Numbered from the stretch's first letter, positions 4,081-62,844 are shown. The stretch: DNA of 63,008 bases from a bacterium (GCA_025355565.1 JANXZK010000008.1:1-63008), one strand, 5' to 3'. Translations and numbers: made by a program. The notes: a model not told the origin generated them from the letters alone.

Positions 4081-4086
4081 TTGTCC

Positions 4087-4130
4087 AAAAAATAAGTCCA
4101 GTAATTGTGCTCTCGCACAGCTACTGGACT
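4087..4130 (-). terminator. Rho-independent terminator
   Basis: On the minus strand, AGUCCAGUAGCUGUG / CACAAUUACUGGACU form a stem-loop followed by UAUUUUUU. Confidence 0.6.
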
Positions 4131-4142
4131 TTCGTTACAAAA

Positions 4143-4343
4143 CTACTGACTTCGTACAGGGTGAAGCAACCTCCGAAATCTTCTCTCCGTACGCTGATTA
4201 TTATGGCCGGAACAGGTCACATAATGATTACCGTCAGATCTGCATGCGACGATTACCGAGTGATGCCTATATGCCGCATAACCTGCAGCGTTCAAACTAG
4301 CCATATACTGTGGGCAGAAGTCGGGACAAATCAACCTGAACAT
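4143..4343 (-). CDS. hypothetical 66-aa Cys/His-rich basic protein (possible zinc-binding); alternatively a structured 3' UTR
   Basis: GGAGG (4357-4353) lies 9 nt upstream of the ATG at 4343. The stop is 12 nt before the terminator hairpin. Contains C-x3-C (CPDFC) and C-x9-C-SGH, plus an Arg-rich tail. The track ORF 4143..4415 is the same frame with an upstream extension. Confidence 0.4.
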   Translation of the reverse strand: MFRLICPDFCPQYMASLNAAGYAAYRHHSVIVACRSDGNHYVTCSGHNNQRTERRFRRLLHPVRSQ

Positions 4344-4371
4344 GCCTACGCGCCTCCTTCGGAATGTAACC

Positions 4372-5133: not shown

Positions 5134-6470
5134 TAATTACCTTCGCTTTCTATGAATGCAAGCAGATTCTCTGCTTTTACTTGTGTTTGTTTTCCAATTT
5201 TCATGTTTTTCACCGAACATTCTCCATTCCGAACCTCGTCCTCGCCTATGATAACGGCGAACGGTATTCCCAATTTGTTGGCATAGGCTATCTTATTCTT
5301 CATCCGAGCCTCTTCTAAATATATCTCGGTTGCTATCCCCGCCCCTCGCAACATTGTGGCTACAGAAAGGGGTAAAGTAAGATCGGACACAAACGGCACT
5401 ATCAACACCTTTGTCGGTGTCGACGAACATTGTTTGATAAGTCCGGCCTCATTTAGTTGATAAAACAACCGCGTAAGACCGATAGAGATGCCAACACCTG
5501 GCAACTTCTGATCCGTGTACTTCTCCGCCAGGTTATCATAGCGACCGCCAGAACAGACCGAACCGATTCCAGGGTACGCTGACAAGATAGTCTCATAAAC
5601 TGTTCCCGTGTAATAATCGAGTCCACGAGCAATCGATAGGTCGATGGCGTAATAACTATCTGGTACGCCAAGCTTCCCTACATTCGTAATCACCTGAGAC
5701 AACTCATCAACTCCCAGTAGGAACTGCTCGTTCTTGATATCCAACGACCTCAGGGATTGTATGATCACATCTGTCGCACCTGAGATTTGGAGAAACTGGA
5801 AGATCTTTTCAATAGTTTCTTTAGTTAGTCCAAGATCGGACATCATTACACTCACTGAGTTTTTCCCGACTTTGTCGATTTTGTCTATGATCCGCATGAC
5901 CTCGACTGACTTCTCTAGTGATATTGCTAACCCCTCAAGAAGCCCCTTCAAGATTTTACGGTTACTAATTCTGATCACAAACGGCCCAAAGTCAAGGCGA
6001 CTGAAGACGTTGTAGATGACACTGGGAATCTCAGCGTCGTTAACGAGGCTGAGGGTATCCCTGCCAATGATATCGATATCACACTGGTAAAATTCACGGA
6101 ATCGACCCTTCTGAGGGCTCTCACCACGATATACCTTACCGATGTGATACCGCCTGAATGGAAATGTTATCTCCCGCTCATGCTTACTCACATATCTCGC
6201 GAGTGGTACAGTAAGATCAAACCTCAGTGCGAGATCTGTGTCACCTTTTGTGAACCTGTAGATTTGCCGTTCTGTTTCGCCGCCTGCTTTGGCGAGCAAT
6301 ACTTCCGCGCGCTCTATGACGGGAGTATCCAAAGGCAAAAAACCGTATTGCTCATAAGTCTCCCTGATCACATTCTCCATGCGATTGAAAGCCATCTGCA
6401 GCGGAGGTAATAACTCCATAAAGCCGGGAAGTACCGTTGTATTCAATTTTTTTGTGCTCATATCGTTCAT
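5133..6470 (-). CDS. hisS: histidine--tRNA ligase
   Basis: 445 aa, full-length class IIa HisRS. Has motif 1, motif 2 (REFYQCDIDIIG), SGGRYDNL, and a C-terminal anticodon-binding domain. Confidence 0.95.
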   Translation of the reverse strand: MNDMSTKKLNTTVLPGFMELLPPLQMAFNRMENVIRETYEQYGFLPLDTPVIERAEVLLAKAGGETERQIYRFTKGDTDLALRFDLTVPLARYVSKHEREITFPFRRYHIGKVYRGESPQKGRFREFYQCDIDIIGRDTLSLVNDAEIPSVIYNVFSRLDFGPFVIRISNRKILKGLLEGLAISLEKSVEVMRIIDKIDKVGKNSVSVMMSDLGLTKETIEKIFQFLQISGATDVIIQSLRSLDIKNEQFLLGVDELSQVITNVGKLGVPDSYYAIDLSIARGLDYYTGTVYETILSAYPGIGSVCSGGRYDNLAEKYTDQKLPGVGISIGLTRLFYQLNEAGLIKQCSSTPTKVLIVPFVSDLTLPLSVATMLRGAGIATEIYLEEARMKNKIAYANKLGIPFAVIIGEDEVRNGECSVKNMKIGKQTQVKAENLLAFIESEGN

Positions 6471-6485
6471 TTTGTTTGATGTTTA

Positions 6486-6515
6486 TTTTTCGAAGACCTA
6501 AAGTGGTCTTCGAAA
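6486..6515. other. perfect 12-bp stem hairpin 16 nt upstream of the hisS start
   Basis: TTTTCGAAGACC-TAAAGT-GGTCTTCGAAAA. No U-tract follows on either strand, so it is not a classical terminator. It may be a leader structure. Confidence 0.4.
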
Positions 6516-6554
6516 AGAGTATAACATATCATACACAAAGCCAACTATGCATCG

Positions 6555-6611
6555 GTAATCTCGTAGTGAAGGAAAAGGCGCGAGGGTGAGGGTGAGATTG
6601 CGGTTCGCTTG
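6555..6611 (+). pseudogene. relic 3' end of a histidine-kinase gene
   Basis: Translates to ...SEGKGARVRVRLRFA*, paralogous to ...DGEGKGARVRFRLPRFAQ of the kinase at 1253..2965. Contains copy 2 of the 26-bp repeat (6566-6591). No upstream kinase ORF. Confidence 0.55.
6566..6591. repeat. 26-bp direct repeat, copy 2
   Basis: Identical to 2898-2923. Confidence 0.95.
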
Positions 6612-6901
6612 ACAAAAGATATTAATCATGCTAAAGTCGTCATACATGAGACCCCACGCAATACGGACCCTATGCGGCCAATTGCGGACGCAATCATCGA
6701 TACTGGCGACAAATTAGCAGCGTGGGTCGATAGCAAGATCCATCCGAAAGATAAAGATGATTGATGACTGGGGGGGTAGCTCGTCTCCCTCCCCATTTTT
6801 ACCACTATGACAGAAATCATACCGATGACATCCCCAACAATTCTAACCATTACTCTCATAATATGGGCTATTTTCATCGTGAAACTCATGGCCGATGCTT
6901 A

Positions 6902-6923
6902 AAGCTAGGGAACATAATTGACA
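6902..6923. repeat. 22-mer AAGCTAGGGAACATAATTGACA (inverted partner of 13606-13627)
   Basis: Exact reverse-complement match to 13606-13627. Ends with a consensus TTGACA hexamer. Confidence 0.9.
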
Positions 6924-6977
6924 GATGTTGATTGGCTCAAACCCTTCGCGGATCTTCCCTATCCTTCAATACACAAT

Positions 6978-7628
6978 TTATTCTGCTGTAGGTCTATCTG
7001 ATAAAAGTTTATTGAACTCTTCATATATTGGATCAAAACTGAACGATTTCTTGAAGAACTGTCTAAACTTGTCTTCTGCCTTGAATGTGGAGGACACTTT
7101 AATCAAATCCAACACTTTTTGTTTACCATACTTTTCGACTAGTATCTGGACAACGAAGCCCGCTTCGGAATAAACACCCTTACCCCCCTTATCGAAATAC
7201 TCTAGAAATTTCTTGAATTCAGTAGGTCTGGTATGCATCACATTTTGTCCGGATGTATAAATAGCAAGGCCTTCCCATAACCAATTCGGTTTAATATTTC
7301 CTCCTGCCAAAATGGACGAAAATGAGTGACTCATCTCATGCTTTATGAGCATTGCATATTCTTCATCACTATATTGTTTGTGATCACTTTCTTTTGAAAA
7401 CTTTGCCTTGTCTAAAACATATACGTTGTTATTCTCTGACCACCCTATTACCCAACTTTCTGTTTTCCTTCCAAACAAAGCGTCAATGTCTTTTCTGTCG
7501 TTTACAATAATCAATCTGGGCAGATTTCTAACCCAATGTATACCATAAAATTCATTGAGCTCTCTAAGAGCCGTGTTATAGACACTTTGAAGTTTCTTAT
7601 TGATTTCACTGTTTATTCTATAAATCAT
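6978..7628 (-). CDS. MA-clan (gluzincin, Peptidase_MA_2-like) zinc metallopeptidase
   Basis: HEMSH followed ~18 residues later by WLWEGLAIY (HExxH...E). The ATG at 7628 is preferred over the TTG at 7661 used by the track. Confidence 0.65.
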   Translation of the reverse strand: MIYRINSEINKKLQSVYNTALRELNEFYGIHWVRNLPRLIIVNDRKDIDALFGRKTESWVIGWSENNNVYVLDKAKFSKESDHKQYSDEEYAMLIKHEMSHSFSSILAGGNIKPNWLWEGLAIYTSGQNVMHTRPTEFKKFLEYFDKGGKGVYSEAGFVVQILVEKYGKQKVLDLIKVSSTFKAEDKFRQFFKKSFSFDPIYEEFNKLLSDRPTAE

Positions 7629-7685
7629 GTTCGATGGATTTGTATGTAAAAATATTAGCAATAAAATAGGGTGGGCACAACTTGG

Positions 7686-8996
7686 TCAAGATACCGGCAC
7701 AAACACCTTATCTCTTACCAATGCGCTACATAGTGTAACGGAATCATCTTGAGAAATTCCAGCAACAGCTGATACTTCCTCAACATTAAACCGCTTTCCT
7801 TTGAATAACACTACCAGCTCGTACGTATCATCGGTTAGTATTGCCGGAGTTCCTATGAGGGTTTGGTCTGCGCACAGCACGCCGATTGATTCTTTCCGTG
7901 TGTGCAAATCGGCATTAACTTCAAACCATTGGGATGCTTCGACCATCTGCGTTTGTCGACGAGTCGAAACTATGGTTTGCACAGTTTTGGGTCGAGCATA
8001 TGGATCAATGGCATCGTACCGCCCTGAGCAGCAAAAAGCGTCTACGCGACAGCCGCCACTGCAATCCGCGAAAAGCGAGCAGCTTTTGCAGACATGGGGA
8101 AGCAACGTACCATCTCTCTGGTCACTCATGGCGTTCCATGAAGCGAGCAAGCATGTGGTCTTGATGTTCCCATAGGTCTTGTCTGAGTGTGAGCAGGGAC
8201 GAATATTGCCGTCTGACCCAATCGTGCAAGTCGTTATGCCTGCACTGCATCGTCTCTCAGAGACAAAAGGATATTTCCCAGGTGCCCCGTACGAGCACAA
8301 TGAGTAGCATTCCAGAATACCCACATGCAACCCGTGTTCCCGTTGCAAAACGCAGAGGTCATCCATAGAAGCAACCATCTCTTCACGAGTGATCATTAGC
8401 TTGGAAAAATCCACAGCATTGAGAGGTGGTGAGGCCTTTGTGGCGAAAAACTGACGAACACCGAGGCCTTTAAGTATGATTCCCGTTGGTACAACATCCT
8501 TAACGTTCTGTTTGATGAGTACCATACTGGCAGCAACCGAGATGCCTGTATCGATAGAGATTCTGATACCTCTCAAGGTTTCGTCGAAGGCACCTGCCCT
8601 TTGATTGATGAGGTCGTGAGTTTCTCGATCGTGCGAGCAGATCGAAGTTAATATGCCGCGAACCCCGATTTTGTAAAGTGCCCGCGCATCTTCTTCGGTC
8701 ATGGTTGTGAGGTTGGAATTGACAGTGCATGACACACCTCGTTCAATCAACCTCTCTAGACCCCTGAAGAGAGTGCGTTTTTCAAGCATACATTCACCAC
8801 CTGTGAAGATGACCTGAAAGATTCGGCAATCGATGATTTGGTCAACGAGCCGTTCCAGCATCTCGGCGCTGATTGAGGTCTGAGTAGTATCACTGCAATG
8901 GCGCCAGTGATTGTAACAGTAGAGGCAACTATTATTGCAGGCGGATGTAAGCTCTACTTGGCAAGTGATTGGGGCAGAAAGAACATGATATAACAT
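7686..8996 (-). CDS. radical SAM / SPASM-domain peptide-modifying enzyme with C-terminal PqqD-like (RRE) domain
   Basis: CNNSCLYC (CxxxCxxC) near the N-terminus. Cys-rich SPASM region (CSAGITTCTIGSDGNIRPC...CKSCSLFADCSGGCRVDAFCC). The last ~85 aa fit the PqqD pattern (TYELVVLFKGKRFNVEEVSAVAGISQDD...LVRDKVFVPV). The ATG at 8996 is preferred; the track start at 9062 is a TTG. Confidence 0.85.
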   Translation of the reverse strand: MLYHVLSAPITCQVELTSACNNSCLYCYNHWRHCSDTTQTSISAEMLERLVDQIIDCRIFQVIFTGGECMLEKRTLFRGLERLIERGVSCTVNSNLTTMTEEDARALYKIGVRGILTSICSHDRETHDLINQRAGAFDETLRGIRISIDTGISVAASMVLIKQNVKDVVPTGIILKGLGVRQFFATKASPPLNAVDFSKLMITREEMVASMDDLCVLQREHGLHVGILECYSLCSYGAPGKYPFVSERRCSAGITTCTIGSDGNIRPCSHSDKTYGNIKTTCLLASWNAMSDQRDGTLLPHVCKSCSLFADCSGGCRVDAFCCSGRYDAIDPYARPKTVQTIVSTRRQTQMVEASQWFEVNADLHTRKESIGVLCADQTLIGTPAILTDDTYELVVLFKGKRFNVEEVSAVAGISQDDSVTLCSALVRDKVFVPVS

Positions 8997-9214
8997 AAGT
9001 ATTTTGTAGATTGTTAAAGGACAAACTAATTTGACAATATAATACAAAACACAATTAATCAATAGTCATGCATATTATTCATAGTAGCGTTCATTGAAAG
9101 CTGTAGGACAGATACACTACTCCGCTTCTTTATGCAAAATATTGCTGATAACTATAATCGGCATATTCGACCAGAGCTGATATAGTGAACACTATGAGAA
9201 CACCCCTCGTCTGA

Positions 9215-9847
9215 TTATCTATTCTCTCTATTATACAAACCGATGACGGCATCATAGAATCTTTTGACTGTGTCTTCAACCTTTGACTCCGACCGAACTA
9301 TGATCGGCTCTCCGATATTTACGGTCAACGCTTTACGAAATACTCTCCGTGCACCTAGTCTGAGTGAAACCGGGACCACAGGTGCGCCTGTCTCGATCGC
9401 GAGTACTGCGGCACCAGAATGGAATGGCGCGATCGCCTGATCAGTGACGATCTTTCCTTCTGGATAGATGACGACATTGCCATCTCGTCCGATGATCTCC
9501 ATAGCCTTCTCGAGATTCTTGTGAAGTCCACGTCCTGGAACGATGACGAACACGCCAAATATACTATATATAAAGCTTATTACACCGATATCAGAAAGAA
9601 AATTGAGCCATTTCCAACTGAAATGTTCCACCGCCATGAATCGTAATGGTAGATGTGGTGTGGCGAATCCTAGAATGAGTCGAAACAAAAAACTATCCGC
9701 GAAGCTAAAGTGATTGACAATGATGATAAATGGCCTCTTGATCTTTCCTAGATTTTCCCTACCATCTACACGAAGACGATAAAAAAGATGAAAGTAGACA
9801 TAAGCTATTGGCCATGTCATGAATTGAGAAATCCGCAAAAACATCAT
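9215..9847 (-). CDS. 1-acyl-sn-glycerol-3-phosphate acyltransferase-like (PlsC family)
   Basis: 210 aa. HX4D motif (NHFSFAD) and VIYPEGK motif. Hydrophobic N-terminus. Confidence 0.85.
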   Translation of the reverse strand: MMFLRISQFMTWPIAYVYFHLFYRLRVDGRENLGKIKRPFIIIVNHFSFADSFLFRLILGFATPHLPLRFMAVEHFSWKWLNFLSDIGVISFIYSIFGVFVIVPGRGLHKNLEKAMEIIGRDGNVVIYPEGKIVTDQAIAPFHSGAAVLAIETGAPVVPVSLRLGARRVFRKALTVNIGEPIIVRSESKVEDTVKRFYDAVIGLYNRENR

Positions 9848-9911
9848 AGTGCGCAGATTGTAGCATACAAATCACTAATATATAAAATCACTTATCTCCG
9901 CCATTTCTCTG

Positions 9912-9984
9912 AGCCGAAGGCCGGGATCGAACCGGCGACCCTCGCTTTACGAAAGCGATGCTCTACCAACTGAGCTACTTCGGC
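9912..9984 (-). tRNA. tRNA-Thr (anticodon CGU)
   Basis: 73-nt cloverleaf read by hand: acceptor GCCGAAG/CUUCGGC, anticodon loop UUCGUAA, T-loop UUCGAUC. No encoded CCA. Confidence 0.9.
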
Positions 9985-10036
9985 ATTCTACATGGTATCA
10001 ATCTCGTAGAACCATATCACACTTCAATATCTCGAG

Positions 10037-10109
10037 AGCCGACGTCCGGGATTGAACCGGAGACCTCGCCATTACCAATGGCGTGCTCTACCAACTGAGC
10101 TACATCGGC
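10037..10109 (-). tRNA. tRNA-Thr (anticodon GGU)
   Basis: 73-nt cloverleaf: acceptor GCCGAUG/CGUCGGC, anticodon loop UUGGUAA, T-loop UUCAAUC. Confidence 0.9.
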
Positions 10110-10303
10110 GGCTTACTAATTCACTGTATCAATAAGAGCGCACTGTAAGAATAGACTATTTGCGGTCGCCTGGCAATATTTGCATGTGGCTTGCATGTGG
10201 TCGCGTTTTGTCGAGAGGTTGCTATGCGATCATTGACTGCGCAAGCTCATTCCATGTCTCAAACTGCGCAATCTCTTTGATTTGGTTTCCATAATAGTCT
10301 ATC

Positions 10304-10987
10304 TCAGACTTTCTTCTTCATTATAAACAAATACTTAAATCCGCGAAGATAGAAATTGTGTTGTCTAGCTCGATCATGCCATATCCCCGTGTTCGATGTT
10401 TGGTTATGACGAGTAAGACAAATTATCTCCATTGGTTCGAAATATTTTTCTAGCCTCTGCCACATGAGGAATCCTGTAGCTGTAAATTTCTTTTTTATCC
10501 ATTGATCTGCTATTACCCAACCCATCACTTTTCCAGGTTTCAATATTCTTTCGATCTCTTGAGCAGTTTTTTCTAGTTCATCATAAAATTCCTCCTTTTC
10601 ACAGGATATTTTTCCTATGCAACGTTGATCGTCCGAATATTTGATGTTATCAGAATACGGCGAATCGATGAAAGCAAAGTCTACTGAATTATCTGTAAGA
10701 GGAATCTTACGGGAATCATTCCTTATGATATCTGGTCTGGTGATATTCAAATCGTAGCCGATCACTTTTCTATTCAATTCTTTGGCCACATCAATGGTCG
10801 TCCCGCTTCCGCACATGGGATCGACGACTAAATCATTTTCCTTTGTATATCTCTGTAATAAATTCCAAATGACAAAAGCCGGCGTTACGCCGTTATATTT
10901 GTTATTTCCGTGGGGCTTATCTCCATAATTCTGAGTTGGAAAATCCCAGAGAGTTGTTGATTCTATTGTGATATTCTTTGTAGACAT
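10304..10987 (-). CDS. DNA methyltransferase (N6-A/N4-C type), R-M subunit M1
   Basis: 227 aa. Motif I DPMCGSGTT followed by motif IV-like FIDSPYSD. Confidence 0.85.
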   Translation of the reverse strand: MSTKNITIESTTLWDFPTQNYGDKPHGNNKYNGVTPAFVIWNLLQRYTKENDLVVDPMCGSGTTIDVAKELNRKVIGYDLNITRPDIIRNDSRKIPLTDNSVDFAFIDSPYSDNIKYSDDQRCIGKISCEKEEFYDELEKTAQEIERILKPGKVMGWVIADQWIKKKFTATGFLMWQRLEKYFEPMEIICLTRHNQTSNTGIWHDRARQHNFYLRGFKYLFIMKKKV

Positions 10988-10990
10988 AGA

Positions 10991-11359
10991 TCATTTTAGT
11001 AATTTTTTTAGATCATCAATGAACTTATCGAACATTTTTACCTTTTCACTTTCCTCAATATTTGTTTCGCTCAAAACATAGCCGCCGTCAGTATCAATTT
11101 CTACGATAGCGCGACCTTTCTTCGTCGGAGATTTTATTGTAAGTGTTCCATCTTCATCTGGCGTCACGAAGTAGACCTTAATATGTTTAGTTGCCTGATC
11201 TGACGCCAGTTTAATCTTCCAGTATCCCGTTTGGGCAACTCTTTCTCGCAATGTCACTTTGCTTGATAACACTGCAACAACTTTGCTAGTTCTCGGATCA
11301 AAAATTATAAGATCAACATCAGGAAGATGTGCGCCGAATTCTCCATAATCTACTATCAA
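10991..11359 (-). CDS. putative type II restriction endonuclease (PD...SxK, Cfr10I/NgoMIV-like signature); start uncertain
   Basis: Sandwiched between two methyltransferases. Contains HLPDVD...VLSSKVTLRERVAQ. The frame is open upstream to 11500 with a protein-like sequence but no ATG/GTG/TTG before the TTG at 11359. Confidence 0.45.
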   Translation of the reverse strand: MIVDYGEFGAHLPDVDLIIFDPRTSKVVAVLSSKVTLRERVAQTGYWKIKLASDQATKHIKVYFVTPDEDGTLTIKSPTKKGRAIVEIDTDGGYVLSETNIEESEKVKMFDKFIDDLKKLLK

Positions 11360-11486
11360 ATTTCTCTTAACTAAACTTAATTCCTTTGAAAGATTCGAAC
11401 CGTTTGTTCTTTCAAGACTATTCCCATTGATAACCTCTAGCCTAAGCGCTCGGACTTCATCAGTAATGATGTACTCGATCAGTTTT

Positions 11487-12764
11487 TCAAGATTTCTCCA
11501 TTACTAATATATATTCGGTCGGATAAGCCGAAACCTTATTCTTATCAGTTATACTTGCAAACTTTCCCGTCTTTTTATCTCTAACAGAAGGTAAATTTTT
11601 CGACGGAATCTCCCTTTTTATAATGTCAGCAACTTTCAATCCCAAGTTTTGCAACTGTTCAACAAATACTTCCGCGTTAAGTATCTTAACTCCTTGCAAA
11701 CTGGTGTTCCCGACAACTATACAGGTCTTTCCACCTTTTTTCAGCATACGCTTCATCTCTACAAACACTTGGTTCATCTCGCTAAAATATGTCGATACCT
11801 CCTCGGCTGTTTTGCGATCAATCTTCAATAATTTCCCCCTGATATCTTCGGCAATTGAACTATTCAATACAAGATTTTTCTTGCTGTGATATGAGGTTCC
11901 AATAAAACGTTTTCTAAAATCACTAATATCTTTCGTATATTCCAGCCACAAAGCAGTAAGTTGATGGAGATCTGCATACTCGTACGATGTAACGTATGGT
12001 GGAGAGGTAACAATCAAACTAACACTATTGTCGTGAGCAGGGATTGTCCTCGCATCTGTACATACAACCTTACTTGGCACTTTAAGATATTTTTTCTCGG
12101 ATAGCATTCTAAATAAACTAGCATTGCCTCGCGACATCATCTTTATCTGTTTGAAAAATGTTCTGATGGGTTCTGATGGTTTTTTCTCGAGATCACGAGT
12201 TGGCTTGTTACTCTTTTGCAACCAGATCGAGCAATTCTTCAAAATGTTCGAAAAACCACAGAACAAGAAATCCTGCACATTCCGATCCTTAACTTTCACT
12301 ATTTCACCATAAATAAAGGCAAGGCTTCTCTTTTCCTCGGGCTTAAACCAATAATCAATTCTTTCATGTTGAGGAGCTTTGACTTTCGTCTTTTCATTAT
12401 AAGTCTCAAGCCTCTTTTGAATGGCTCCAAATTCTTTCTCAAGTTTTTCTGGATCAATCGGAGTTATTTTAGCTTTTGTTATAAGAACCGCTACGGGGTT
12501 AATATCAACGGCAATTGAAGGCCTTCCCATGACTTTTGATTCGACAAGAGTTGTGCCACAACCGCCAAAAGGATCAGCTACCAAGTCTCCTGATTTTGTG
12601 TATCTTTCTACCAAGCGAGAAACCACTTGTGGAATAAATTTTGCTGGATAACGGTGATAACCATGAGTAATATACGCAGTATCTTTACGCGTCTTATCAG
12701 AGAATGACCATGATGGATCAATCTTTGTCTTATCGAGATGCGAAGTGATATTATCAGTTATCAT
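11487..12764 (-). CDS. DNA methyltransferase (N6-A/N4-C type), R-M subunit M2
   Basis: 425 aa. Motif I ADPFGGCGTT near the N-terminus and motif IV TSPPYV ~190 aa later (alpha-like order). Confidence 0.85.
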   Translation of the reverse strand: MITDNITSHLDKTKIDPSWSFSDKTRKDTAYITHGYHRYPAKFIPQVVSRLVERYTKSGDLVADPFGGCGTTLVESKVMGRPSIAVDINPVAVLITKAKITPIDPEKLEKEFGAIQKRLETYNEKTKVKAPQHERIDYWFKPEEKRSLAFIYGEIVKVKDRNVQDFLFCGFSNILKNCSIWLQKSNKPTRDLEKKPSEPIRTFFKQIKMMSRGNASLFRMLSEKKYLKVPSKVVCTDARTIPAHDNSVSLIVTSPPYVTSYEYADLHQLTALWLEYTKDISDFRKRFIGTSYHSKKNLVLNSSIAEDIRGKLLKIDRKTAEEVSTYFSEMNQVFVEMKRMLKKGGKTCIVVGNTSLQGVKILNAEVFVEQLQNLGLKVADIIKREIPSKNLPSVRDKKTGKFASITDKNKVSAYPTEYILVMEKS

Positions 12765-47680: not shown

Positions 47681-47767
47681 GCGCGGGTGGCGAAATTGGT
47701 AGACGCACTACCTTGAGGTGGTAGCGCCCATTAGGGCATGGAAGTTCGAGTCTTCTCCCGCGCACCA
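47681..47767 (+). tRNA. tRNA-Leu (anticodon GAG), CCA encoded
   Basis: 87-nt class II tRNA: acceptor GCGCGGG/CCCGCGC, anticodon loop UUGAGGU, long variable arm, 3' ACCA. Confidence 0.9.
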
Positions 47768-47905
47768 GTAGTAACTTGTTCGGAATGAAGAATGTCGGCA
47801 ATTTGCTGGAGGCTATGAGCGCCGGTAATGTAGAGATCAAATATTCGAGGCACATACTTGGCATGTTTCTTGTCCAGAATGATTGAATTGGTAGCCTTGT
47901 CGTTA
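47768..47905 (-). pseudogene. relic of a serine-recombinase (integrase) gene
   Basis: The fragment ...NDKATNSIILDKKHAKYVPRIFDLYITGAHSLQQIADILHSEQV resembles the recombinase domain of large serine recombinases. It is truncated on both sides, abuts the tRNA-Leu 3' end, and is cut by the IS630 insertion. Confidence 0.45.
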
Positions 47906-50572: not shown

Positions 50573-50669
50573 GTACCCATTGTATCACAAAATTGATGTA
50601 TTTGGGGGGTTGGTTAATAAGTTCAACTATGAGGAGATCCATCCATATAGTTTAACACCACCAAATATT

Positions 50670-50995
50670 ATTGCCTGTGGCGCCACTCGCCCCAACCGGC
50701 TTCTCCGGGCAGGCCGTGCGCGGCCGCTTTTACGAGAGCCACTGGTAGGAGAGAGTACGAACGCGCCCACTTCCGCCCTAACTTTGTATGTGGCGCTCCT
50801 TTCGCGCATACCCATATGCCTCCGCGCATTTCCCCCAATTGCTCATTGCAATAGGGGTGCGCTACGGCACATCGGTATGCGCTAGTCGCGAATTGGTTTC
50901 GTGGTTACGGGCGGAAGTAGACGCGTTCTCATCTCCAAAGCGGCTCGCGCACCGCCTACCCTCCAAAGCCGGTAGGACGGGGCGAAGGATATTTT
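50670..50995 (+). other. GC-rich, highly self-complementary ~320-nt non-coding element (candidate structured RNA)
   Basis: Nested long-range pairings, e.g. ACGCGCCCACTTCCGCCC (50759-50776) with GGGCGGAAGTAGACGCGT (50909-50926). Also local hairpins GGCCG-TGCG-CGGCC and CCTACC...GGTAGG. Only nonsense ORFs. Confidence 0.3.
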
Positions 50996-51062
50996 TTGTA
51001 TTTAAGAAATAGGATCTATATTTTGTAAATTCGTAATTGATTCATTTAGAAAATCAACATCC

Positions 51063-51299: not shown

Positions 51300-51318
51300 A
51301 GAAATACTATACTATATC

Positions 51319-51359
51319 GAAAAGAAAAAGGAGCTAGGCGGACGATGCCACCGAGCTCC
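51319..51359 (-). terminator. Rho-independent terminator
   Basis: On the minus strand, GGAGCUCGGUGG-CAUCGU-CCGCCUAGCUCC followed by UUUUUCUUUUC. Confidence 0.55.
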
Positions 51360-51397
51360 TCACGTGTCTAGCTACTCAATCACGAGTAGCTTTGCGC

Positions 51398-51505
51398 TTA
51401 GACGCTTTCTCCAGTGCTTCCATCGCCGCCACCGGAAGAGTCGGAATCACCCTCGTAGGACGGGCAACCCTCATCGTCGCTTTCGCGTTGAATAACATTA
51501 ATCAT
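51398..51505 (-). CDS. 35-aa acidic micro-protein candidate
   Basis: AAGGA 6 nt upstream of the ATG. Sequence MINVIQRESDDEGCPSYEGDSDSSGGGDGSTGESV. Followed by two hairpins including the terminator. Confidence 0.3.
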   Translation of the reverse strand: MINVIQRESDDEGCPSYEGDSDSSGGGDGSTGESV

Positions 51506-51629
51506 AAGGATCCTTATGGTTACAGTTTTTCGCTATGTCGAGCCACTCATACATGAGTCGGTTCTCCCTCTATAGAGGTAAAGTTAATTTGGCACCCTAT
51601 CATCGAAATCATCTACCCCGTCATCAGCC

Positions 51630-55956: not shown

Positions 55957-56176
55957 GTGGGGAAAGCGTATATGGTGGCTATGGTGTAATAGCAGCACAT
56001 GGGCTTGTGGAGCCCTTAGATCCGGAGCATAACCGGATAGCCACCCAGATTTGGGTATTATCTATCAAATGATCTTTTGGTTGAATCTCTCCAATTCGAC
56101 GCGAACTTTTTGCTCCTTGTAAACAATTATTTATAAGGAAGAGCCATCTGTGCATAACCACTTGTTTTTATCCTTT

Positions 56177-56240: not shown

Positions 56241-57512
56241 ATGCTAAAAACCATAGTATCCAATCAAAAAAAGCAAAAAGAACAGCTTTTATCCCTTGCT
56301 TATATACAAAGAAGTAAAGAACCATTTGCACAGAAATGGCTTAATTCTGATTTAATAAAAGTGATACTTGGTCCCCGCCGAGCGGGAAAATCTGTCTTTT
56401 CTTTGGTACTCCTTAGAGATCGACCATTTATGTACTTCAACTTTGATGATGAAGTCATAGCAAGTAATGGTGGAATAGATACCAATGAATTGATGAAGGA
56501 GTTGCATGCGGAGTATGGTCAGGTCAAAACTATTCTCTTTGATGAAATACAAAATCTTCCAAACTGGGAACTTTTTGTGAACCGCTTGCATCGTGAAGAT
56601 TACAATCTTGTACTTACAGGATCAAATGCTCACCTTCTTTCAAAAGAACTTGCAACCCATCTTACAGGCAGACATATGCCAATAGAAATATTACCATTTG
56701 ATTTTAATGAATTTTTGAAAGCAAAGAAATTTGATACTAATCCTGAATACAGAATGCTTCCAAAGAATTATGGAGAGTTACTTAACCTCATGGAGAACTA
56801 CATGGTGAATGGTGGTTTTCCAGAGGTTGCTGTAAACAATGCTGATCCTAGAGATTATCTGGGTGTATTGTTCGATGCGCTCCTATTTAAAGATGTGGTG
56901 AAGAGACATAAAGTGAAACTTTCTACTCAAGTAGGAAATCTCGGTTCACATCTCATAAATAATTTCTCAAATTTGTACACGGTCCGAAAAATAATGGACG
57001 TATTAAATCTTAAGAGTACAACAACTGTTGAAAAATATATTGATTACCTTGAAGAGGCATACCTTATTTTCTCGTTGCATCAGTATTCTCCAAAGTCTGT
57101 TACTAGAATAAAATCACCTCGTAAAATATATGTCGTTGATAATGGTTTTGTCCTTGCAAAAGCTGTTCAACACTCGCCAGATAAAGGAAAACTCATGGAG
57201 AACCTTGTTTTTATAGAACTTGTTAAACGAGGCAACAAACCAAACCGTGAATTGTTCTATTACAAGACTCGTAATGATCGAGAAATAGATTTTTTGCTTA
57301 TGAAAGGACATGTGGTAACAGAACTTGTGCAAGTATGTTTCGAATCAATAAACCCCGACGTTGAACAGAGAGAAATAAAAGCATTGGTAGAAGCAAGTGG
57401 TGAATTGAACGTCAAAACACTCACTGTGCTTACTTGGGATGAAAAACGTGAAGTGGAAAAAGATGGTCTAAAGATTTCCTTTAAACCCCTACACGAATGG
57501 CTGAAAGCCTGA
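56241..57512 (+). CDS. AAA-family ATPase with DUF4143-like C-terminal domain
   Basis: Walker A GPRRAGKS and Walker B ILFDEIQ. The C-terminal region resembles a restriction-endonuclease-like fold (ELVQV...). Confidence 0.85.
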   Translation: MLKTIVSNQKKQKEQLLSLAYIQRSKEPFAQKWLNSDLIKVILGPRRAGKSVFSLVLLRDRPFMYFNFDDEVIASNGGIDTNELMKELHAEYGQVKTILFDEIQNLPNWELFVNRLHREDYNLVLTGSNAHLLSKELATHLTGRHMPIEILPFDFNEFLKAKKFDTNPEYRMLPKNYGELLNLMENYMVNGGFPEVAVNNADPRDYLGVLFDALLFKDVVKRHKVKLSTQVGNLGSHLINNFSNLYTVRKIMDVLNLKSTTTVEKYIDYLEEAYLIFSLHQYSPKSVTRIKSPRKIYVVDNGFVLAKAVQHSPDKGKLMENLVFIELVKRGNKPNRELFYYKTRNDREIDFLLMKGHVVTELVQVCFESINPDVEQREIKALVEASGELNVKTLTVLTWDEKREVEKDGLKISFKPLHEWLKA

Positions 57513-57539
57513 TCGTTTCGAGGCAGAGCCTCTCTGCTT

Positions 57540-57680
57540 GGCAACGAATATACAATGATGAGGGCGTCGATGGACTTCTCACCAACAAAGGCGACCTAAA
57601 GCGACAGGAATCGTTTAAAAAAGGGGCATTGTCGAGCAGATAGCCAAAATTATATCTCACGACAAACCACAACGTAATTG
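57540..57680 (+). pseudogene. short relic of an IS630-type transposase N-terminus
   Basis: WQRIYNDEGVDGLLTNKGDLKRQESF..., interrupted by a stop, with no continuing ORF. Confidence 0.35.
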
Positions 57681-57863
57681 TGCCTACTAGATAACTACTT
57701 CACATTCTTCGCCACTCGCTCCAACAGCACTTTCGGAAAGTGATCCTCCTCCGCTCCTCGCAAGCTCCTCCTTCGCAAAGTTACGGAGGACACCGTCGGA
57801 GCTCTGGCGGGACGAGTTGGTATGGTGAGAGCGACCAACGGTCTGTGCGCTACATATTCTTTT

Positions 57864-58100
57864 TTATTCTGATAGGTGTGTCTTTATAAATGATCTCCCC
57901 GAACCAGATTTAAAATAAGTCTCAAGCTTAAAAGCAACATACTTATCATGAACGGCCACATAGAAGTCTAATTTCAATGGTCTTCGATTCATGGTAGCAG
58001 GAACGTTTCCCTTTTTATGTCTATCAAAGCGTTCTTTCAAGTCACTCGTACAGCCAACATAATAGCCATCCTTACATTTTAAACTGTATACATAATGCAT
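57864..58100 (-). CDS. GIY-YIG domain protein (small URI-type nuclease family)
   Basis: YVYSLKCKDGYYVGCTSDLKERFDRHKKG. The ATG at 58100 is preferred. Confidence 0.8.
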   Translation of the reverse strand: MHYVYSLKCKDGYYVGCTSDLKERFDRHKKGNVPATMNRRPLKLDFYVAVHDKYVAFKLETYFKSGSGRSFIKTHLSE

Positions 58101-58158
58101 ATATTTGTGTCGCCTTAGCACCTTCGCGACTTCGGCATACTAAAAGCGGATTTCATCA

Positions 58159-58203
58159 CGCCGTAGCTACGCCGTTACAATGAGCTCGCCTACGTCGCTT
58201 CGC
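58159..58203. repeat. 45-nt direct repeat, copy 1 (core of a ~90-bp GC-rich element)
   Basis: CGCCGTAGCTACGCCGTTACAATGAGCTCGCCTACGTCGCTTCGC is identical to 62735-62779. Confidence 0.95.
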
Positions 58204-58265
58204 TCGGCGCTAGCAAAGGACGGTGTGGAAGACGCTGGGGTTTGGGACAAGCGGATTTCACACCG

Positions 58266-58329
58266 TCCTTTCTCTTCTTTATTTTTTGCTGAATTAAATT
58301 CTAAATACTAGTTTGTGAAATGAACAAAA
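58266..58329. repeat. 64-bp inverted repeat, left arm
   Basis: Reverse complement of 62569-62632 with one mismatch. The 55-nt perfect core is 58275-58329. Confidence 0.95.
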
Positions 58330-58353
58330 ACTATAGGATATTTATTGTTGTAC

Positions 58354-61300
58354 TTATTCGTTATTTTGACGATTCTCGAAACGAACAGAATAAAAATCTT
58401 CACCATTCAAATAGGCAGGAAGCTTTTCATTTTTTGTTAAATAAAATCCTTTACTTTCAAACCACGATCGAATACGTTTATTCATTAGTAACGGATATGA
58501 AGTACTAGCTCGCGCTTCCGCTTCAATTGGCACTTTATACGCTGTTGCAACATCAAGCACTCTTTCCATCATCTTACGAGCAAGCGGTGATCCTCTAAAC
58601 TTGGGAAGCACAACCATATCGTATATATGAGCCGCCTGCTCTCCGTGATTAGTTTCAGATTCTTCCGGAAGAACTAGCAAGTATCCAGCGGCTTCGTCAC
58701 CTTGGCGAATAATAAAACTTGATGCCGCTCCAGGAACCTCAAGCTCTCTTTGTTTACGTAATACATCGACTATATGAGCTTTACCTTGTGTCATGCCAAC
58801 AGGATAAGCTTCCGCTTCCATTTTCGCGATCAAATCTGCATCACGCTCAGACAGATTCGCAAATGTAACAATTTTATCTAAAGACTCGACACCCCTAATT
58901 TTTGGCATATCATAAATTTGACCTCCAGTAGCATCTGAATATGATAATCTTGTTTTTGCACGATAGCTATTTTTTTCCAATTTTCCGCCCGGAGGAGTTA
59001 AGTCAGAATAGCCAGTGCCAACCTTCACTGGCTTGCTCGTGTATTCAGTCCAAAAAGTTTGATACACTCTAGATAAAAGAGGAGAAAGATTTTTGTAATT
59101 ATTAGCGACCTCAATATTGTCCAGGACAACCACATCACTTTTATCTTTTTCATTAACACTATCAACGACAACCGATTGTGCAATGATTCGCCCATTATAA
59201 CGAACTGTAAAATATTGAGTGGAAGGGTTAAACATGTAATCATCATTTTTTGAATCACCAAATGGCATACAACAATCTGTATAATTTCCACATACCCACC
59301 CTTCGGGATCAGATTTTGCATGTACTTGAGCTTCCACAATTGGTCCGACATCTACTTTCTGCTCACGCAACAAACGAATAACTTCTTCCTCCAAATCAAT
59401 CGGTACAGCATTGAGCAAATCAATTACTTGGAGTTTTTTCCCGTCTTCCTCTCGCCCTTTCACCAATTGATTCAACGCGAAGAAAAATCCTTTAGGATCC
59501 TTAGCAGTACCTCTGATTTTTTGTTTTTGTGAACCTAACCCCTCTCGCAGAGATTCGGTTAGCGCCCGCCCAACAAATGTTCGTGAGCGAGGAGTAAACG
59601 GCTGTTCTTTGTCCAATTTTCCCTCAAATAAATCTTGGAAATCAGCACGTTGTCGCATTGATTCAAGTGCTGCAAGATTAAACCCTGGTGCAGAAGTAAT
59701 TTCCAACAACTCTGGTGGAAATTTAGACATGTCTATATTGGATTCAATTCCCAAAATTCGCTTTTTAAGTTCCCTGACAGACTGTATTGGCCCCGAACTT
59801 AAAATAGGATCTCGCTCTTTACTGTAACGAGGCAACAAATTTATAAACTCTTGATTCTCGTCCATTGTCTCGATACCACCAAGTATTGACCTAGCATCTG
59901 CTACTTCTAATTTTTGAATATTTGGGCTCCACAAAAGAACATCGTGCCAGTTTGCTATTCGCCCATCAGTTCCACGAGTAGCATTGAACCGCATTAGATA
60001 ACCCTGCATAAGCTCACTGCCGACATGTTCAGCCGCTCCCTTATACCAATTCCGTATTTCTTCAGTTTGACCACTTAGACAAATACGGAAATCCATATCT
60101 GCTTTTCGTTCCGGTGCTTTACTAAATAGTTCGGACCACAGCTTACCTTCATTGCTAGCACGCCACGTTGCATACTTTACTAGTCCATTTGGGTCGAGTA
60201 AAACATAATCACTCGCATATTCGTAGTACAAACTAATTTCTTCGGGTGAAACCGCCTTACGCAATTCAGGTGACCAATCAGAAACCGCAAACTCAAGATC
60301 ATTTTCAATTCCTCCCTTAATCACACCCTCGAGGTAACGTTGTTTATCATTAGAAATAGCTATTCCACGCAAATCTTGCCCGCGCTCAAGCGCTTGAATA
60401 ATTAACCCCAGTGTTGCAGCTCTCCCTTTTTCTTGCTTTTGTTCACCATATGCAGGTTGTTCATCAACCCCTTGACCTAGTAACGCCACGATTATATTTT
60501 TATGTTTTTCTAGATACTCTTTTAATTTTTCTTCCGGAACATCAGCTTTAGAAAGATCATATCGATCCCAATTTACACTACTATCATTACGATAAAATCT
60601 ATCTTCTGGGGTACGACTTGGACTACTTTGCCATACTTGCTTAGCCAGCCAGTGCATTCGCTTGCCTTCATAGAATAAATCTCTAGATTTTCTTACTCCC
60701 ATTAGTTCAAGCCAACTTTTATCTTCCGCTTTTTTGCCAAGCTTTGCACGTGCCACCTCAATTTCACTTTTATTTCTTTCTTCAAGATATTTTAATAGAC
60801 CAGAACGCTCTAAAGTGTAAGCTTGATGCATTTGTTTCTTTAATTGATCAGGTTCAAGTTTAGCTATATCAAAATGCATTGATTGTAGGATAGAAAGACC
60901 TGTCAATTGTTCAGAAACATTTCGGTCGTCTTTATGTAAAACCTGCTGGGCTTTTTCTACTCCAACTAATTTTATAAAATCATAAATCTGATCAGCGGGA
61001 TAAAAATAAGGGCTTTCCTCTCCTCGTCCGCATAAATATTTAGAGATTACTTCTTTCTGTGCTGGCTCTAAGGTGTCGATAGCTTTTCTTGCTAGAATGT
61101 CGTGAACTCCCGACTTTGCATCTCGAATGACTGAAGTTCGATTAAAATTATCTGTATCAATAACTGGTCTGTTGTGTAAATCTGAATAAAAGAAATCCAG
61201 CGATGTTCCTGCTTTTTCTTCCGCATTCGGCTCTCTTAATAATTGCTCAACCCGCTTAGAATTTTGTCGAAACTCCTCATAATCTTTTTGGGGATTCTCT

Positions 61301-62310
61301 CCCATAAGTCCGTATTGCTTTGCAATTTTTTCATATTTAAAATGAAGCTGGTTTTTTATTTTACCTGCCGGTACAGCCGTAATCAGCAATTCTTTATTTT
61401 TGGGATATTCCAGTAAACTCTGAAGAAAAATATCCGTAGCCCATTTTTGCGACTGCTCGCGGATTTCTTTTTTTTCATTATCTCTTAAGAATTGATCGTA
61501 ACATTCATACCAGTCCCCTTTTTGCTTTTCAGTTACAGGTTCACCATAATTTTCTACATATCTTTTTTTAACTAATTCACCATATATTCTTTCGGGTTCT
61601 CCGCTTTGAATCAATTGGACATTTGACTGTATATCTTCGAATCTTTTCTTTACCGTTTGAATAAGCGCGTTGGCGTTCGTCACATCTCCTTCAATTAATT
61701 TACTTTCTTTCTCATTCCATACACGCATACCAAAGTCGTTAGCACATAGATAACGATCCTTTGCTCTAAAATAATATCTATGCGGAAACTTACTACCCGC
61801 ACCTCCCCCTACATTTTTTCGTGAATCAATGCGTAGAGCATCTTTCGCATAAGAAAGCGCAAGTAAATCGCTTGAGCTGATTTCATAATCAGAAAGCTGT
61901 CTTGCGTTTTCATATTCAGAAAGTTGTGTTCCTTCGGGATACTTTTCATCCGTCTGAAAAATAGCAGGTTTGCCATCTTGCTCGAATATATAATAATTTG
62001 CACCTAAAATTCCAATGTCTTTATTGGTTATTCCTAATCGCTCGATAAGCTGGGTATGGTTCTGTTCAGTAGACAAAAAGACAGGAAGTAATTGCTCGAA
62101 GTTTGCATCAACGTAATCCTCAACATCTTTATCAAATTCAAGACGAGTAAGTGGCTGTTCTGCCTTTGCAACTCCAAAACCTTCAGCAAGTTCAGGATGT
62201 ATTCCTTCCGTGCTTCGTGGAGAACGAATATGATCAGAAAGACCTTCTTCTATCTCTTTTTTCGCTTGCTTTTTTGAATAATCCTCTGGAATTGAAAATG
62301 ATTCGCGCAT
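58354..62310 (-). CDS. 1318-aa orphan protein with C-terminal GNAT acetyltransferase domain
   Basis: Uninterrupted 3.96-kb ORF with no signal peptide or TM. The last ~170 aa carry a GNAT pattern (YLLVLPEE..., IYDMVVLPKFRGSPLARKMMERVL = R-G-x-x-x-A CoA loop). I recognise no domain in the first ~1100 aa. Confidence 0.85.
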   Translation of the reverse strand: MRESFSIPEDYSKKQAKKEIEEGLSDHIRSPRSTEGIHPELAEGFGVAKAEQPLTRLEFDKDVEDYVDANFEQLLPVFLSTEQNHTQLIERLGITNKDIGILGANYYIFEQDGKPAIFQTDEKYPEGTQLSEYENARQLSDYEISSSDLLALSYAKDALRIDSRKNVGGGAGSKFPHRYYFRAKDRYLCANDFGMRVWNEKESKLIEGDVTNANALIQTVKKRFEDIQSNVQLIQSGEPERIYGELVKKRYVENYGEPVTEKQKGDWYECYDQFLRDNEKKEIREQSQKWATDIFLQSLLEYPKNKELLITAVPAGKIKNQLHFKYEKIAKQYGLMGENPQKDYEEFRQNSKRVEQLLREPNAEEKAGTSLDFFYSDLHNRPVIDTDNFNRTSVIRDAKSGVHDILARKAIDTLEPAQKEVISKYLCGRGEESPYFYPADQIYDFIKLVGVEKAQQVLHKDDRNVSEQLTGLSILQSMHFDIAKLEPDQLKKQMHQAYTLERSGLLKYLEERNKSEIEVARAKLGKKAEDKSWLELMGVRKSRDLFYEGKRMHWLAKQVWQSSPSRTPEDRFYRNDSSVNWDRYDLSKADVPEEKLKEYLEKHKNIIVALLGQGVDEQPAYGEQKQEKGRAATLGLIIQALERGQDLRGIAISNDKQRYLEGVIKGGIENDLEFAVSDWSPELRKAVSPEEISLYYEYASDYVLLDPNGLVKYATWRASNEGKLWSELFSKAPERKADMDFRICLSGQTEEIRNWYKGAAEHVGSELMQGYLMRFNATRGTDGRIANWHDVLLWSPNIQKLEVADARSILGGIETMDENQEFINLLPRYSKERDPILSSGPIQSVRELKKRILGIESNIDMSKFPPELLEITSAPGFNLAALESMRQRADFQDLFEGKLDKEQPFTPRSRTFVGRALTESLREGLGSQKQKIRGTAKDPKGFFFALNQLVKGREEDGKKLQVIDLLNAVPIDLEEEVIRLLREQKVDVGPIVEAQVHAKSDPEGWVCGNYTDCCMPFGDSKNDDYMFNPSTQYFTVRYNGRIIAQSVVVDSVNEKDKSDVVVLDNIEVANNYKNLSPLLSRVYQTFWTEYTSKPVKVGTGYSDLTPPGGKLEKNSYRAKTRLSYSDATGGQIYDMPKIRGVESLDKIVTFANLSERDADLIAKMEAEAYPVGMTQGKAHIVDVLRKQRELEVPGAASSFIIRQGDEAAGYLLVLPEESETNHGEQAAHIYDMVVLPKFRGSPLARKMMERVLDVATAYKVPIEAEARASTSYPLLMNKRIRSWFESKGFYLTKNEKLPAYLNGEDFYSVRFENRQNNE

Positions 62311-62383
62311 AAAATTAATTACTAATAATTATTGATAATTAGCATAATGATAGCAATTTTTTATAGAATATGCTAGTATAAAA

Positions 62384-62503
62384 ATGGTTAAATTTTCTGT
62401 TCAAACGAGCAGAAAGTGCCGAAAGGCAATGAAGACAAAGACAACCTCCTAGAGGTACTGTCTGGCGGAGTAGAACACAGGTTCTGCTCCGCCTAAATTT
62501 TTA
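62384..62503 (+). ncRNA. candidate small divergent transcript (sRNA or leaderless 22-codon ORF) ending in a strong terminator
   Basis: Possible extended -10 (TGCTAGTAT at 62371-62379). Terminator GGCGGAGTAGAAC-ACAG-GTTCTGCTCCGCC plus TAAATTTTT at 62464-62503. Internal ACCTCCTAGAGGT hairpin. Confidence 0.35.
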
Positions 62504-62568
62504 TCCTAACAACACCCAACCTAGATATCTTTAAAATAGGACTGTAAAATTTATAAATATTCTATCGA

Positions 62569-62632
62569 TTTTGTTCATTTCACAAACTAGTATTTAGAAT
62601 TTAATTCAGCAAAAAATAAAGAAAAGAAAGGA
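62569..62632. repeat. 64-bp inverted repeat, right arm
   Basis: Reverse complement of 58266-58329 with one mismatch. Confidence 0.95.
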
Positions 62633-62734
62633 GCGAAGGCGCAATGCCCCATAAAGACAGAGTCGCAAAGTGACACAATATTTTACCCCTCAGGATTCTC
62701 GACGAAAAAAGTTCGAACTTCAAGTAAAAACTGC

Positions 62735-62779
62735 CGCCGTAGCTACGCCGTTACAATGAGCTCGCCTACGTCGCTTCGC
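62735..62779. repeat. 45-nt direct repeat, copy 2
   Basis: Identical to 58159-58203. Embedded between 17-nt inverted arms (62705-62721 and 62814-62830). Confidence 0.95.
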
Positions 62780-62844
62780 GACTTAGGCGTAGCGAAGGCG
62801 GGGAGTGTGGAACGAAGTTGGAACTTTTTTGGCTAGTAATATGT

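Follow-up and report, generated by a model that had tools for sequence, protein, structure and literature searches.

What does a long, nearly perfect inverted repeat do around a single giant gene? The question is raised by a 63,008-nucleotide (nt) stretch of bacterial DNA (GCA_025355565.1, JANXZK010000008.1:1-63008; "the window" below means the whole of this stretch), in which two inverted-repeat arms enclose a gene for a 1318-amino-acid (aa) protein with a GNAT acetyltransferase tail. We found that the repeat is real and acts at the level of DNA. It is probably the bracket of a non-autonomous, decaying cargo cassette, one that can possibly still be flipped. The evidence for this comes partly from the window and partly from relatives among the Candidate Phyla Radiation (CPR) bacteria, where the same gene is bracketed by arms of other sequence and, in some lineages, accompanied by a large serine recombinase (SR).

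An earlier note on this sequence had described positions 58266-58329 as the reverse complement of 62569-62632 with one mismatch, built around a perfect 55-nt core (58275-58329 / 62569-62623). Re-reading the sequence bore out both statements, as well as the distances given there for the 64-nt arms (24 nt past the stop codon of the giant gene and 258 nt before its ATG). The extent of the repeat had been underestimated, however. A repeat search showed that it runs further inward, to 80 nt per arm at 95% complementarity, with four mismatches that cluster at the inner edge and 4207 nt between the arms. Measured from these longer arms, the distances to the gene shrink to 8 and 242 nt. Read from their sequences, the arms are AT-rich (~28% G+C). 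The window gene is enclosed by inverted repeats that are long, nearly identical and turned inward, where the conserved module ends.

The 55-mer core occurs exactly twice in the window, where 100 shuffles gave an expectation of zero, and the arms are the sole inverted pair of ≥40 nt and ≥90% identity at a spacing of 0.8-7 kb in the entire 63 kb. A 44-mer of the arm had no exact match in 185,579 species genomes. The only copies in the window are the two arms themselves.

Independent support came from the Logan assemblies. Exact-protein lookup recovered a unitig (L001, 4299 bp, present in 6 samples, runs SRR23617162-SRR23617164 among them) that corresponds to window positions 58300-62598, that is, to the inner segment plus k-1 = 30 nt of each perfect core. 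Such ends are what a genuine inverted repeat produces in a de Bruijn graph of k=31, as used there. It is therefore very unlikely that the arms are a chimeric or palindromic join, a possibility that the earlier note had wanted excluded.

The same note had reported no target duplication beside the arms. This is true of the bases directly adjoining them, where the outer flanks (...CACACCGT before the left arm, GCGAAGGC after the right arm) differ, but a perfect 45-nt direct repeat lies further out on both sides (Table 1). Its statement that the bracket holds no recombinase was upheld by Pfam and tblastn searches, in which no invertase gene was detected within or adjoining the segment. Rfam searches at gathering and permissive thresholds gave no match on the arms of the window or of six relatives. 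An outward promoter in the arms (TTGTTC-N18-TAGAAT), read by eye, failed a consensus scan and was dropped.

Brackets and recombinases in relatives

To place the window repeat in context, we collected loci from species genomes (23) and JGI metagenomes (42), together with several obtained by exact lookup, and searched each for a bracket by blast of the upstream against the downstream flank; loci are designated by L numbers. No fewer than 11 further CPR lineages have the giant gene between long, near-identical inverted repeats (Table 1), with arm sequences unrelated to those of the window. Inverted pairs with arms of ≥40 nt and ≥90% identity numbered 11 among 31 de-duplicated loci (405 kb): eight around the giant gene, three around an adjacent SR and none elsewhere. 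As long inverted pairs are otherwise absent from this sequence, an unrelated coincidence at exactly the giant gene is improbable. In the other lineages the arms lie 164-438 nt upstream and 9-561 nt downstream of the gene. The downstream arm follows the stop codon by 8-13 nt in the window, L006 and L017 (12-13 nt in the latter two), and no target-site duplication directly adjoins the arms of L006 and L017 either. Many assemblies break at the arms.

The bracket is not a constant companion of the gene. Other giant-gene loci (L153/L174, L008, L159, L020) have no repeat, or direct repeats instead, and the 18 contigs of the P0011 lineage showed no bracket and a single context. L002 matches L003 at 99.9% identity across 4.9 kb, yet the downstream arm is present in L002 only. 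In L153 (5392-5471 / 10252-10331) and also in L174, a perfect 80-nt direct repeat reproduces the 3' end of an upstream gene for a 647-aa helicase-like protein, and its second copy lies 364 nt beyond the giant gene; the 4.9-kb module so delimited contains no recombinase. These direct copies of the end of a target gene indicate that the giant-gene module was inserted as a cassette.

The arms of the relatives differ by lineage, yet they are assembled from conserved blocks that are also found singly beside the gene elsewhere. The main block, E1, occurs at 120 loci or more across many CPR phyla. A genome often has several copies of it, and contigs often end there; the giant gene was present at 2 of 120 E1 loci among the matches listed. 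E1 consists of the end of an open reading frame (ORF; ...LEYIYDFARTYFIKNS*) followed by GC hairpins, with the core motif ...CTTTACAAC..GCTCGAAC... We considered whether it is an independent small-protein gene, but it has no Pfam match and proved to be the C-terminal coding end of the SR itself. Its position relative to this ~530-aa protein (Resolvase, Recombinase and zinc ribbon domains) is fixed: [<-SR] - 230-350 nt - [E1-> tail -> cargo]. E1 duplicates SR residues ~464-510 and continues into the native C-terminus; at that point the full-length SR ORF enters tRNA-derived codons instead.

The native tail is missing from all 21 resolvable SR genes, of which no fewer than 13 continue into a tRNA 3' end. 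Nineteen of the 21 lie inside an inverted repeat (a/a') of 114-148 nt, mostly 97-100% identical. The junctions between a and b, between a and the tRNA, and between the outer sequence and b share only GAG, GGAG, TTGG or TGGTG, that is, 3-5 nt (L104, L141, L132, L037, L058). We use "a" for the final ~135-146 nt of SR coding sequence ahead of the crossover and "b" for what follows it, namely ~14 codons, the stop codon and the GC-hairpin tail. A shared core this short gives the three junctions the relation of attP (a to b), attR (a to tRNA) and attL (outer to b), as for a serine recombinase. The integrated element is laid out as target / b-> cargo <-b <-a [SR-> a->] / tRNA. As these elements insert at the 3' ends of tRNA genes and retain a spare inverted attP, the SR segment and the cargo segment each have a bracket of their own.

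The giant gene is the cargo of the full architecture in L017 and L154, and its orientation relative to the SR is opposite in the two. A decayed or nearby SR was found in L007 and at the locus of the 82% homolog. In other elements the same arrangement encloses diverse cargo (Table 1). Full-text search of a limited library did not turn up any account of elements of this kind in CPR, which is no proof of novelty; the architecture is recurrent and apparently undescribed.

Two further observations concern the E1 copies. In L104 (6774-6896, - strand) a LOOT RNA (Rfam RF03000, 73.6 bits) lies in the bracketed cargo next to the right arm. Although near one E1 copy, it sits in the cargo and is unrelated to the arms. 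The second tail hairpin of several copies (L035, L060, L104, L111, L141; within the first ~140 nt after the stop codon) has the loop GGGGTNTGGGG, which occurs in either orientation across copies while the stem is kept, and this hints at small local inversions.

Weighing the origin of the window bracket

The window shares its cargo gene with the SR-element family and carries it in a decayed island beside a tRNA gene. Homology between the window and L002, L004 and L188 begins 48 nt inside the upstream arm, at the position that corresponds to the inner end of the SR-derived arm of L002. The coding sequence of the window is 81-85% identical at the nucleotide level to its nearest relatives, while the two arms are 95% identical to each other. 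Since the arms resemble each other more than the coding sequence resembles that of its relatives, the bracket was formed, or last homogenised, after the lineages split, which fits with recurrent turnover of arms.

The reading towards which we lean is that the window arms are the DNA-level boundaries of a 4.2-kb cargo cassette, composed of the giant gene and a candidate small RNA, that is, or formerly was, part of an SR-driven family of CPR integrative elements. The AT-rich arms would be the equivalents of the b arms in an SR-less derivative, either decaying or dependent on functions supplied in trans, and the 45-nt direct repeat would mark the integration junctions of the cassette. The arms may still be able to mediate inversion. 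In the SR elements, recombination between the arms, whether site-specific at the core or RecA-dependent, would flip a segment and keep the arms identical.

Several results weigh against this reading. The window arms share no detectable sequence with the E1/E2 arms or with any fetched locus by blastn, and they are AT-rich where those of every relative are GC-rich. An E1 profile had no match in the window at E≤10 (nhmmer), and no CTTTACAAC-type core was found near the module. By Pfam searches of the neighbors and by tblastn no SR gene adjoins the bracket, the sole relic (47767-47904) being 10 kb away; nor was an a-type repeat found near the module, including around the segment with the AAA_14 and GIY-YIG genes. 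The flanking 45-nt repeat is direct, which the serine-integrase model does not predict. Finally, no orientation polymorphism was seen in the sole lineage with two long assemblies (L201/L202, of the L006 lineage). As the module lacks both a recombinase and an att core, we do not assign it to the SR elements and describe it only as working like them or as descended from them.

The earlier note had proposed an invertible or excisable cassette, acted on by a recombinase encoded elsewhere, or a non-autonomous cargo element with very long terminal repeats. Both proposals gain from the relatives, through the brackets around the same gene in at least 11 lineages, the att-bearing arms beside an SR and the insertion in L153/L174. 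For the window module itself, neither a recombinase nor an att core nor a second orientation could be shown.

More tentatively, the window repeat may be the SR-less remnant of an undescribed class of CPR element, defined by an attP in the 3' end of the gene for a tRNA-targeting large serine integrase, a second, inverted attP, flippable segments and cargo that is still movable in trans. In such an element a flip of the SR segment would restore the native C-terminus of the SR. The giant GNAT gene together with a small RNA or an XRE-type helix-turn-helix (HTH) gene would be recurrent cargo, and this cargo could still be inverted or excised in trans by way of the arms and the 45-nt direct repeat.

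Among the alternatives, the one that survives best holds that the inverted duplication arose independently in this lineage, without any recombinase in its history, perhaps through a template switch or as the ends of a non-autonomous DDE-type element; the brackets of the relatives would then be parallel cases and the arms functionless. Although we regard this as unlikely, the lack of similarity between the window arms and any SR-derived arm keeps it alive. Their AT-richness, the DDE transposase relics in the window and the bare 95% identity of the arms, with decay concentrated at the inner edge, also favor it, as does the L163 bracket, which persists at 80% identity without homogenisation. On the other hand, no target-site duplication directly adjoins the arms, the arm is confined to its two window copies (with no hit for its 44-mer in the species genomes), its position equals that of the SR-derived arms of the closest relatives, and the 405 kb of comparable sequence are otherwise devoid of long inverted pairs.

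We consider it improbable that the cassette is an active phase-variable segment, flipped by a recombinase elsewhere in the genome so as to change which flanks are read from or into it. The geometry does resemble that of the Gin, Cin and Pin segments and of the intact SR elements of the relatives, the perfect 55-nt core could sustain recombination, and cargo orientation relative to the SR differs between lineages. The frequent assembly breaks at the arms would also be in keeping with flipping, but such breaks are expected for any repeat of length k or more. The promoter-like sequences of the giant gene and of the divergent RNA both lie within the bracket, so a flip would not uncouple them. In addition, there is no recombinase within 10 kb, and no second orientation was seen where this was checked at the population level (L201/L202). 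A synteny comparison of L006 with L007 carries no weight for or against an inversion, as their flanks share nothing beyond the module and E1.

Very unlikely is the third proposal of the earlier note, in which both arms are co-transcribed and form an 80-bp duplex between the 5' and 3' ends of the 4-kb mRNA, either processed by RNase III or stabilising the message. In length, arms of 80 nt would suffice for cleavage by RNase III, and the downstream arm follows the stop codon closely, as it does in L006 and L017. The mismatches, however, show no strand bias towards G.U pairs: in six imperfect brackets 25 give a wobble pair on the sense strand, 25 on the antisense strand and 19 break both, with 20 gaps, and three of the four window mismatches give no sense-strand wobble pair. 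By consensus scans the upstream arm lies beyond the divergent terminator-ended unit and a promoter-like region. Arm positions vary across lineages over the ranges given above, the same architecture surrounds unrelated cargo and the SR gene, and arm identity often reaches 100%, more than RNA pairing would need. Last, an assembly artefact has next to nothing to recommend it beyond the short distance from the right arm to the contig end (376 nt) and the frequency of misjoins at repeats, against which stand the independent unitig with its symmetric ends in 6 samples, a structure with a unique 4.2-kb segment between the arms rather than that of a fold-back contig, and the recurrence of the architecture in long contigs from several assemblers and studies.

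Contents and surroundings of the bracket

The giant protein has a single recognisable domain, a GNAT acetyltransferase at its C-terminus (Pfam PF00583, 1.7e-07, residues 1194-1258). An AlphaFold2 model of residues 661-1318 (mean predicted local distance difference test score, pLDDT, 80) matched only acetyltransferases of the Naa50/Ard1/RimI type, with a TM-score normalised to the target of ~0.7, and the GNAT fold with its acetyl-CoA-binding core is thus seen both by Pfam and in the model. A profile search of the PDB, NCBIfam, PADLOC and PHROGs added nothing to this assignment, and IMG/VR held no relative that would speak for a viral origin. The family comprises 36 further clusters at 90% identity, all from Paceibacterota/Minisyncoccota-type CPR bacteria. 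They are 41-87% identical to the window copy, and an alignment of 14 sequences had a mean column identity of 65%.

Between the upstream arm and the ATG lies a divergent mini-transcript, as the earlier note had pointed out. Its four hairpins and its terminator on the + strand, a stem followed by a T run, are conserved in L002, L004 and L188. Compensatory changes are seen at three of its pairs, and read from the opposite strand several G.U pairs would become A.C. Its start was placed by a promoter-like TTAGCA-N17-TAGAAT read in the sequence, which our promoter scan did not call. On these sequence features, we regard the mini-transcript as a credible candidate for a small RNA. In three other loci (L005:1778-1990, L006:449-661, L201:5776-5988) its place is taken by a gene for a 70-aa XRE-type HTH protein, 4-13 nt ahead of the ATG of the giant gene. 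This pairing with the GNAT giant gene looks like a possible toxin-antitoxin arrangement.

Outside the arms, the 45-nt direct repeat and the GC-rich flanks of the window had no match in the other loci. One possibility is that the direct repeat is a duplication of the attL/attR type that marks the integration junctions. A GC-rich hairpin on the left shares its loop motif with the E2 hairpins in the arms of relatives; as it is followed by the T run of the arm on the + strand, it looks like an inward-facing terminator. On the right, a 17-nt inverted pair surrounds a 92-nt block of GC hairpins that includes one copy of the direct repeat. By eye, this block (62705-62830) bears a weak likeness to the recombinase-tail core GAAGTTCGAAC of L154, and GTTCGAAC within it resembles the recombinase-tail core of L154 and E1. 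It may be a collapsed, cargo-less bracket.

The neighborhood, described in the earlier note as decayed and mobile/defence-like, is a decayed island. Beyond the left arm lie a GIY-YIG gene and an AAA_14/DUF4143 ATPase gene, then a tRNA-His gene whose 3' end faces the island; a KilA-N fragment and relics of insertion sequences (IS) are also near the module. The tRNA gene was called by ARAGORN, yet it was not reported by Rfam at the gathering threshold. It could be the original integration target of the window module. Two Logan unitigs with the AAA_14 gene both end at position 57625, which suggests a branch of the graph in the GC-rich spacer 57513-57863. When we looked in other samples for contigs that cross the window arms, the AAA_14 gene was found only on Logan unitigs, and the GIY-YIG product had no record.

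Further away, two SR protein queries detected a weak SR relic that directly abuts a tRNA-Leu gene (47681-47767), the same geometry as in the intact elements. Two segments between IS relics (50600-51000 and 51300-51600) have a G+C content of 0.5-0.58, with no convincing ORF and no Rfam match.

Table 1. Positions of the bracket, its contents and its surroundings in the window, and of brackets and SR elements in relatives.
Sequence	Feature	Position	Strand	Remarks
Window	Left arm	58266..58345		Downstream of giant gene, 8 nt past its stop codon; perfect core 58275-58329
Window	Right arm	62553..62632		End 242 nt upstream of the ATG of giant gene; perfect core 62569-62623
Window	Cargo gene, 1318-aa protein	58354..62310	-	C-terminal GNAT acetyltransferase domain
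Window	Divergent mini-transcript, candidate small RNA	62375..62500	+	Four conserved hairpins; terminator stem 62464-62493 and T run
Window	Direct repeat, left copy	58159..58203	+	Perfect 45 nt, 62 nt outside left arm
Window	Direct repeat, right copy	62735..62779	+	Perfect 45 nt, 102 nt outside right arm
Window	GC-rich hairpin	58215..58271	+	3' stem shares outer 6 nt of left arm; loop motif CCCAAACCCC/GGGGTTTGGG
Window	17-nt inverted pair AAAAAAGTTCGAACTTC	62705..62830		62705-62721 / 62814-62830
Window	GIY-YIG nuclease-domain gene	57864..58121	-	5' end toward left arm
Window	AAA_14/DUF4143 ATPase gene	56241..57512	+	Matches candidate defence family PADLOC PDC-S01 (3e-99)
Window	tRNA-His	55975..56046	+	3' end toward island, 2.2 kb from left arm, two genes between
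Window	SR relic, weak	47767-47904	-	tblastn E=1e-4; 10 kb away
L002	Bracket around giant gene			204 nt, 98.5%
L006/L201	Bracket around giant gene			150 nt, 94.7%
L012	Bracket around giant gene			141 nt, 100%
L158	Bracket around giant gene			99 nt, 100%
L017	Bracket around giant gene			123 nt, 100%
L151	Bracket around giant gene			90 nt, 92%
L154	Bracket around giant gene			268 nt, 100%
L156	Bracket around giant gene			101 nt, 100%
L161	Bracket around giant gene			50 nt, 100%
L163	Bracket around giant gene			301 nt, 80%
L005	Bracket around giant gene			24 nt, 100%
L037	Bracket around diverse cargo			298 nt
L082	Bracket around diverse cargo			150 nt
L104	Bracket around diverse cargo			197 nt, 100%
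L132	Bracket around diverse cargo			250 nt
L141	Bracket around diverse cargo			177 nt
L058	Bracket around diverse cargo			315 nt
L104	SR element	1104-7240		Repeats 100-300 nt
L154	SR element	124-6908		Repeats 100-300 nt
L017	SR element	5674-11999		Repeats 100-300 nt
L037, L058, L132, L141	SR elements			Repeats 100-300 nt

Significance and comparison with known systems

The genomes of CPR bacteria are tiny, and hardly any work has characterised the mobile elements in them. The window repeat led us to a recurrent architecture in which an integrase uses tRNA 3' ends, has its site in its own gene and keeps an inverted spare copy. Should the segments flip, bacteria would have a new way to invert whole genes in a programmed manner and to let an integrase regulate itself, and flipping would account for the repeated breaks of metagenome assemblies at these loci. 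The conserved GNAT-tailed orphan protein of ~1300 aa is marked as horizontally moving cargo, which narrows the ideas on its role. Compact sites of this kind, with att inside the gene, may also prove useful as integrase tools. The copy in the window may itself be a fossil, and its repeat is probably the boundary of a decaying cassette rather than an RNA structure.

Like cargo transposons and miniature inverted-repeat transposable elements, the window module has terminal inverted repeats around DNA without a transposase. It differs from them in the lack of a target-site duplication beside the arms, in being single-copy and in having arms much longer than the IS termini of the window. The arms of the relatives, moreover, derive from the end of a recombinase gene and not from transposase-binding ends. 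With the large-serine-recombinase elements (phiC31, Bxb1, A118, TnpX and the ccr genes of SCCmec) the elements of the relatives share the domain set, the attP/attB/attL/attR logic and a very short core. To our knowledge, those systems have a single attP, with no inverted duplicate and no cargo between long identical inverted repeats.

The serine-invertase segments, namely G of phage Mu with Gin, C of P1 with Cin (0.6-kb arms), P of e14 with Pin and H of Salmonella with Hin, are similar to the window module in having inverted repeats on either side of a unique segment a few kb long. The intact elements of the relatives share more with them, as a recombinase gene of the serine family lies immediately outside one arm and the crossover site is in the arms. 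In contrast to the ~190-aa invertases, the enzyme of the relatives is a large serine recombinase/integrase of ~530 aa; the arms are copies of its own 3' end, and an entire gene together with its promoter region forms the cargo, instead of alternative gene ends. The window differs further in having no invertase gene next to or inside the segment.

The yeast 2-micron plasmid (FLP/FRT) consists of two unique segments and two copies of an inverted repeat that carries the target site, with the recombinase gene in one segment. The circular forms that we infer for L104, L154 and L017 would have this same layout of two segments and two repeats. Here, however, the hosts are CPR bacteria, the recombinase is of the serine and not the tyrosine type, and the elements are seen integrated at tRNA genes; the window keeps one bracket only.

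A parallel to a crossover within the recombinase gene is found in the "suicidal" tyrosine integrases of the SSV type, in which the att site lies inside the integrase gene and the gene is split on integration, and which a review describes as exclusive to archaea (PMC8371274). The relatives likewise have their crossover within the recombinase coding sequence, and the integrated ORF loses its last ~14 native codons and enters the tRNA. Unlike the archaeal enzymes, these recombinases are of the serine type and bacterial, only the extreme C-terminus is swapped, and a spare, inverted and intact copy is kept.

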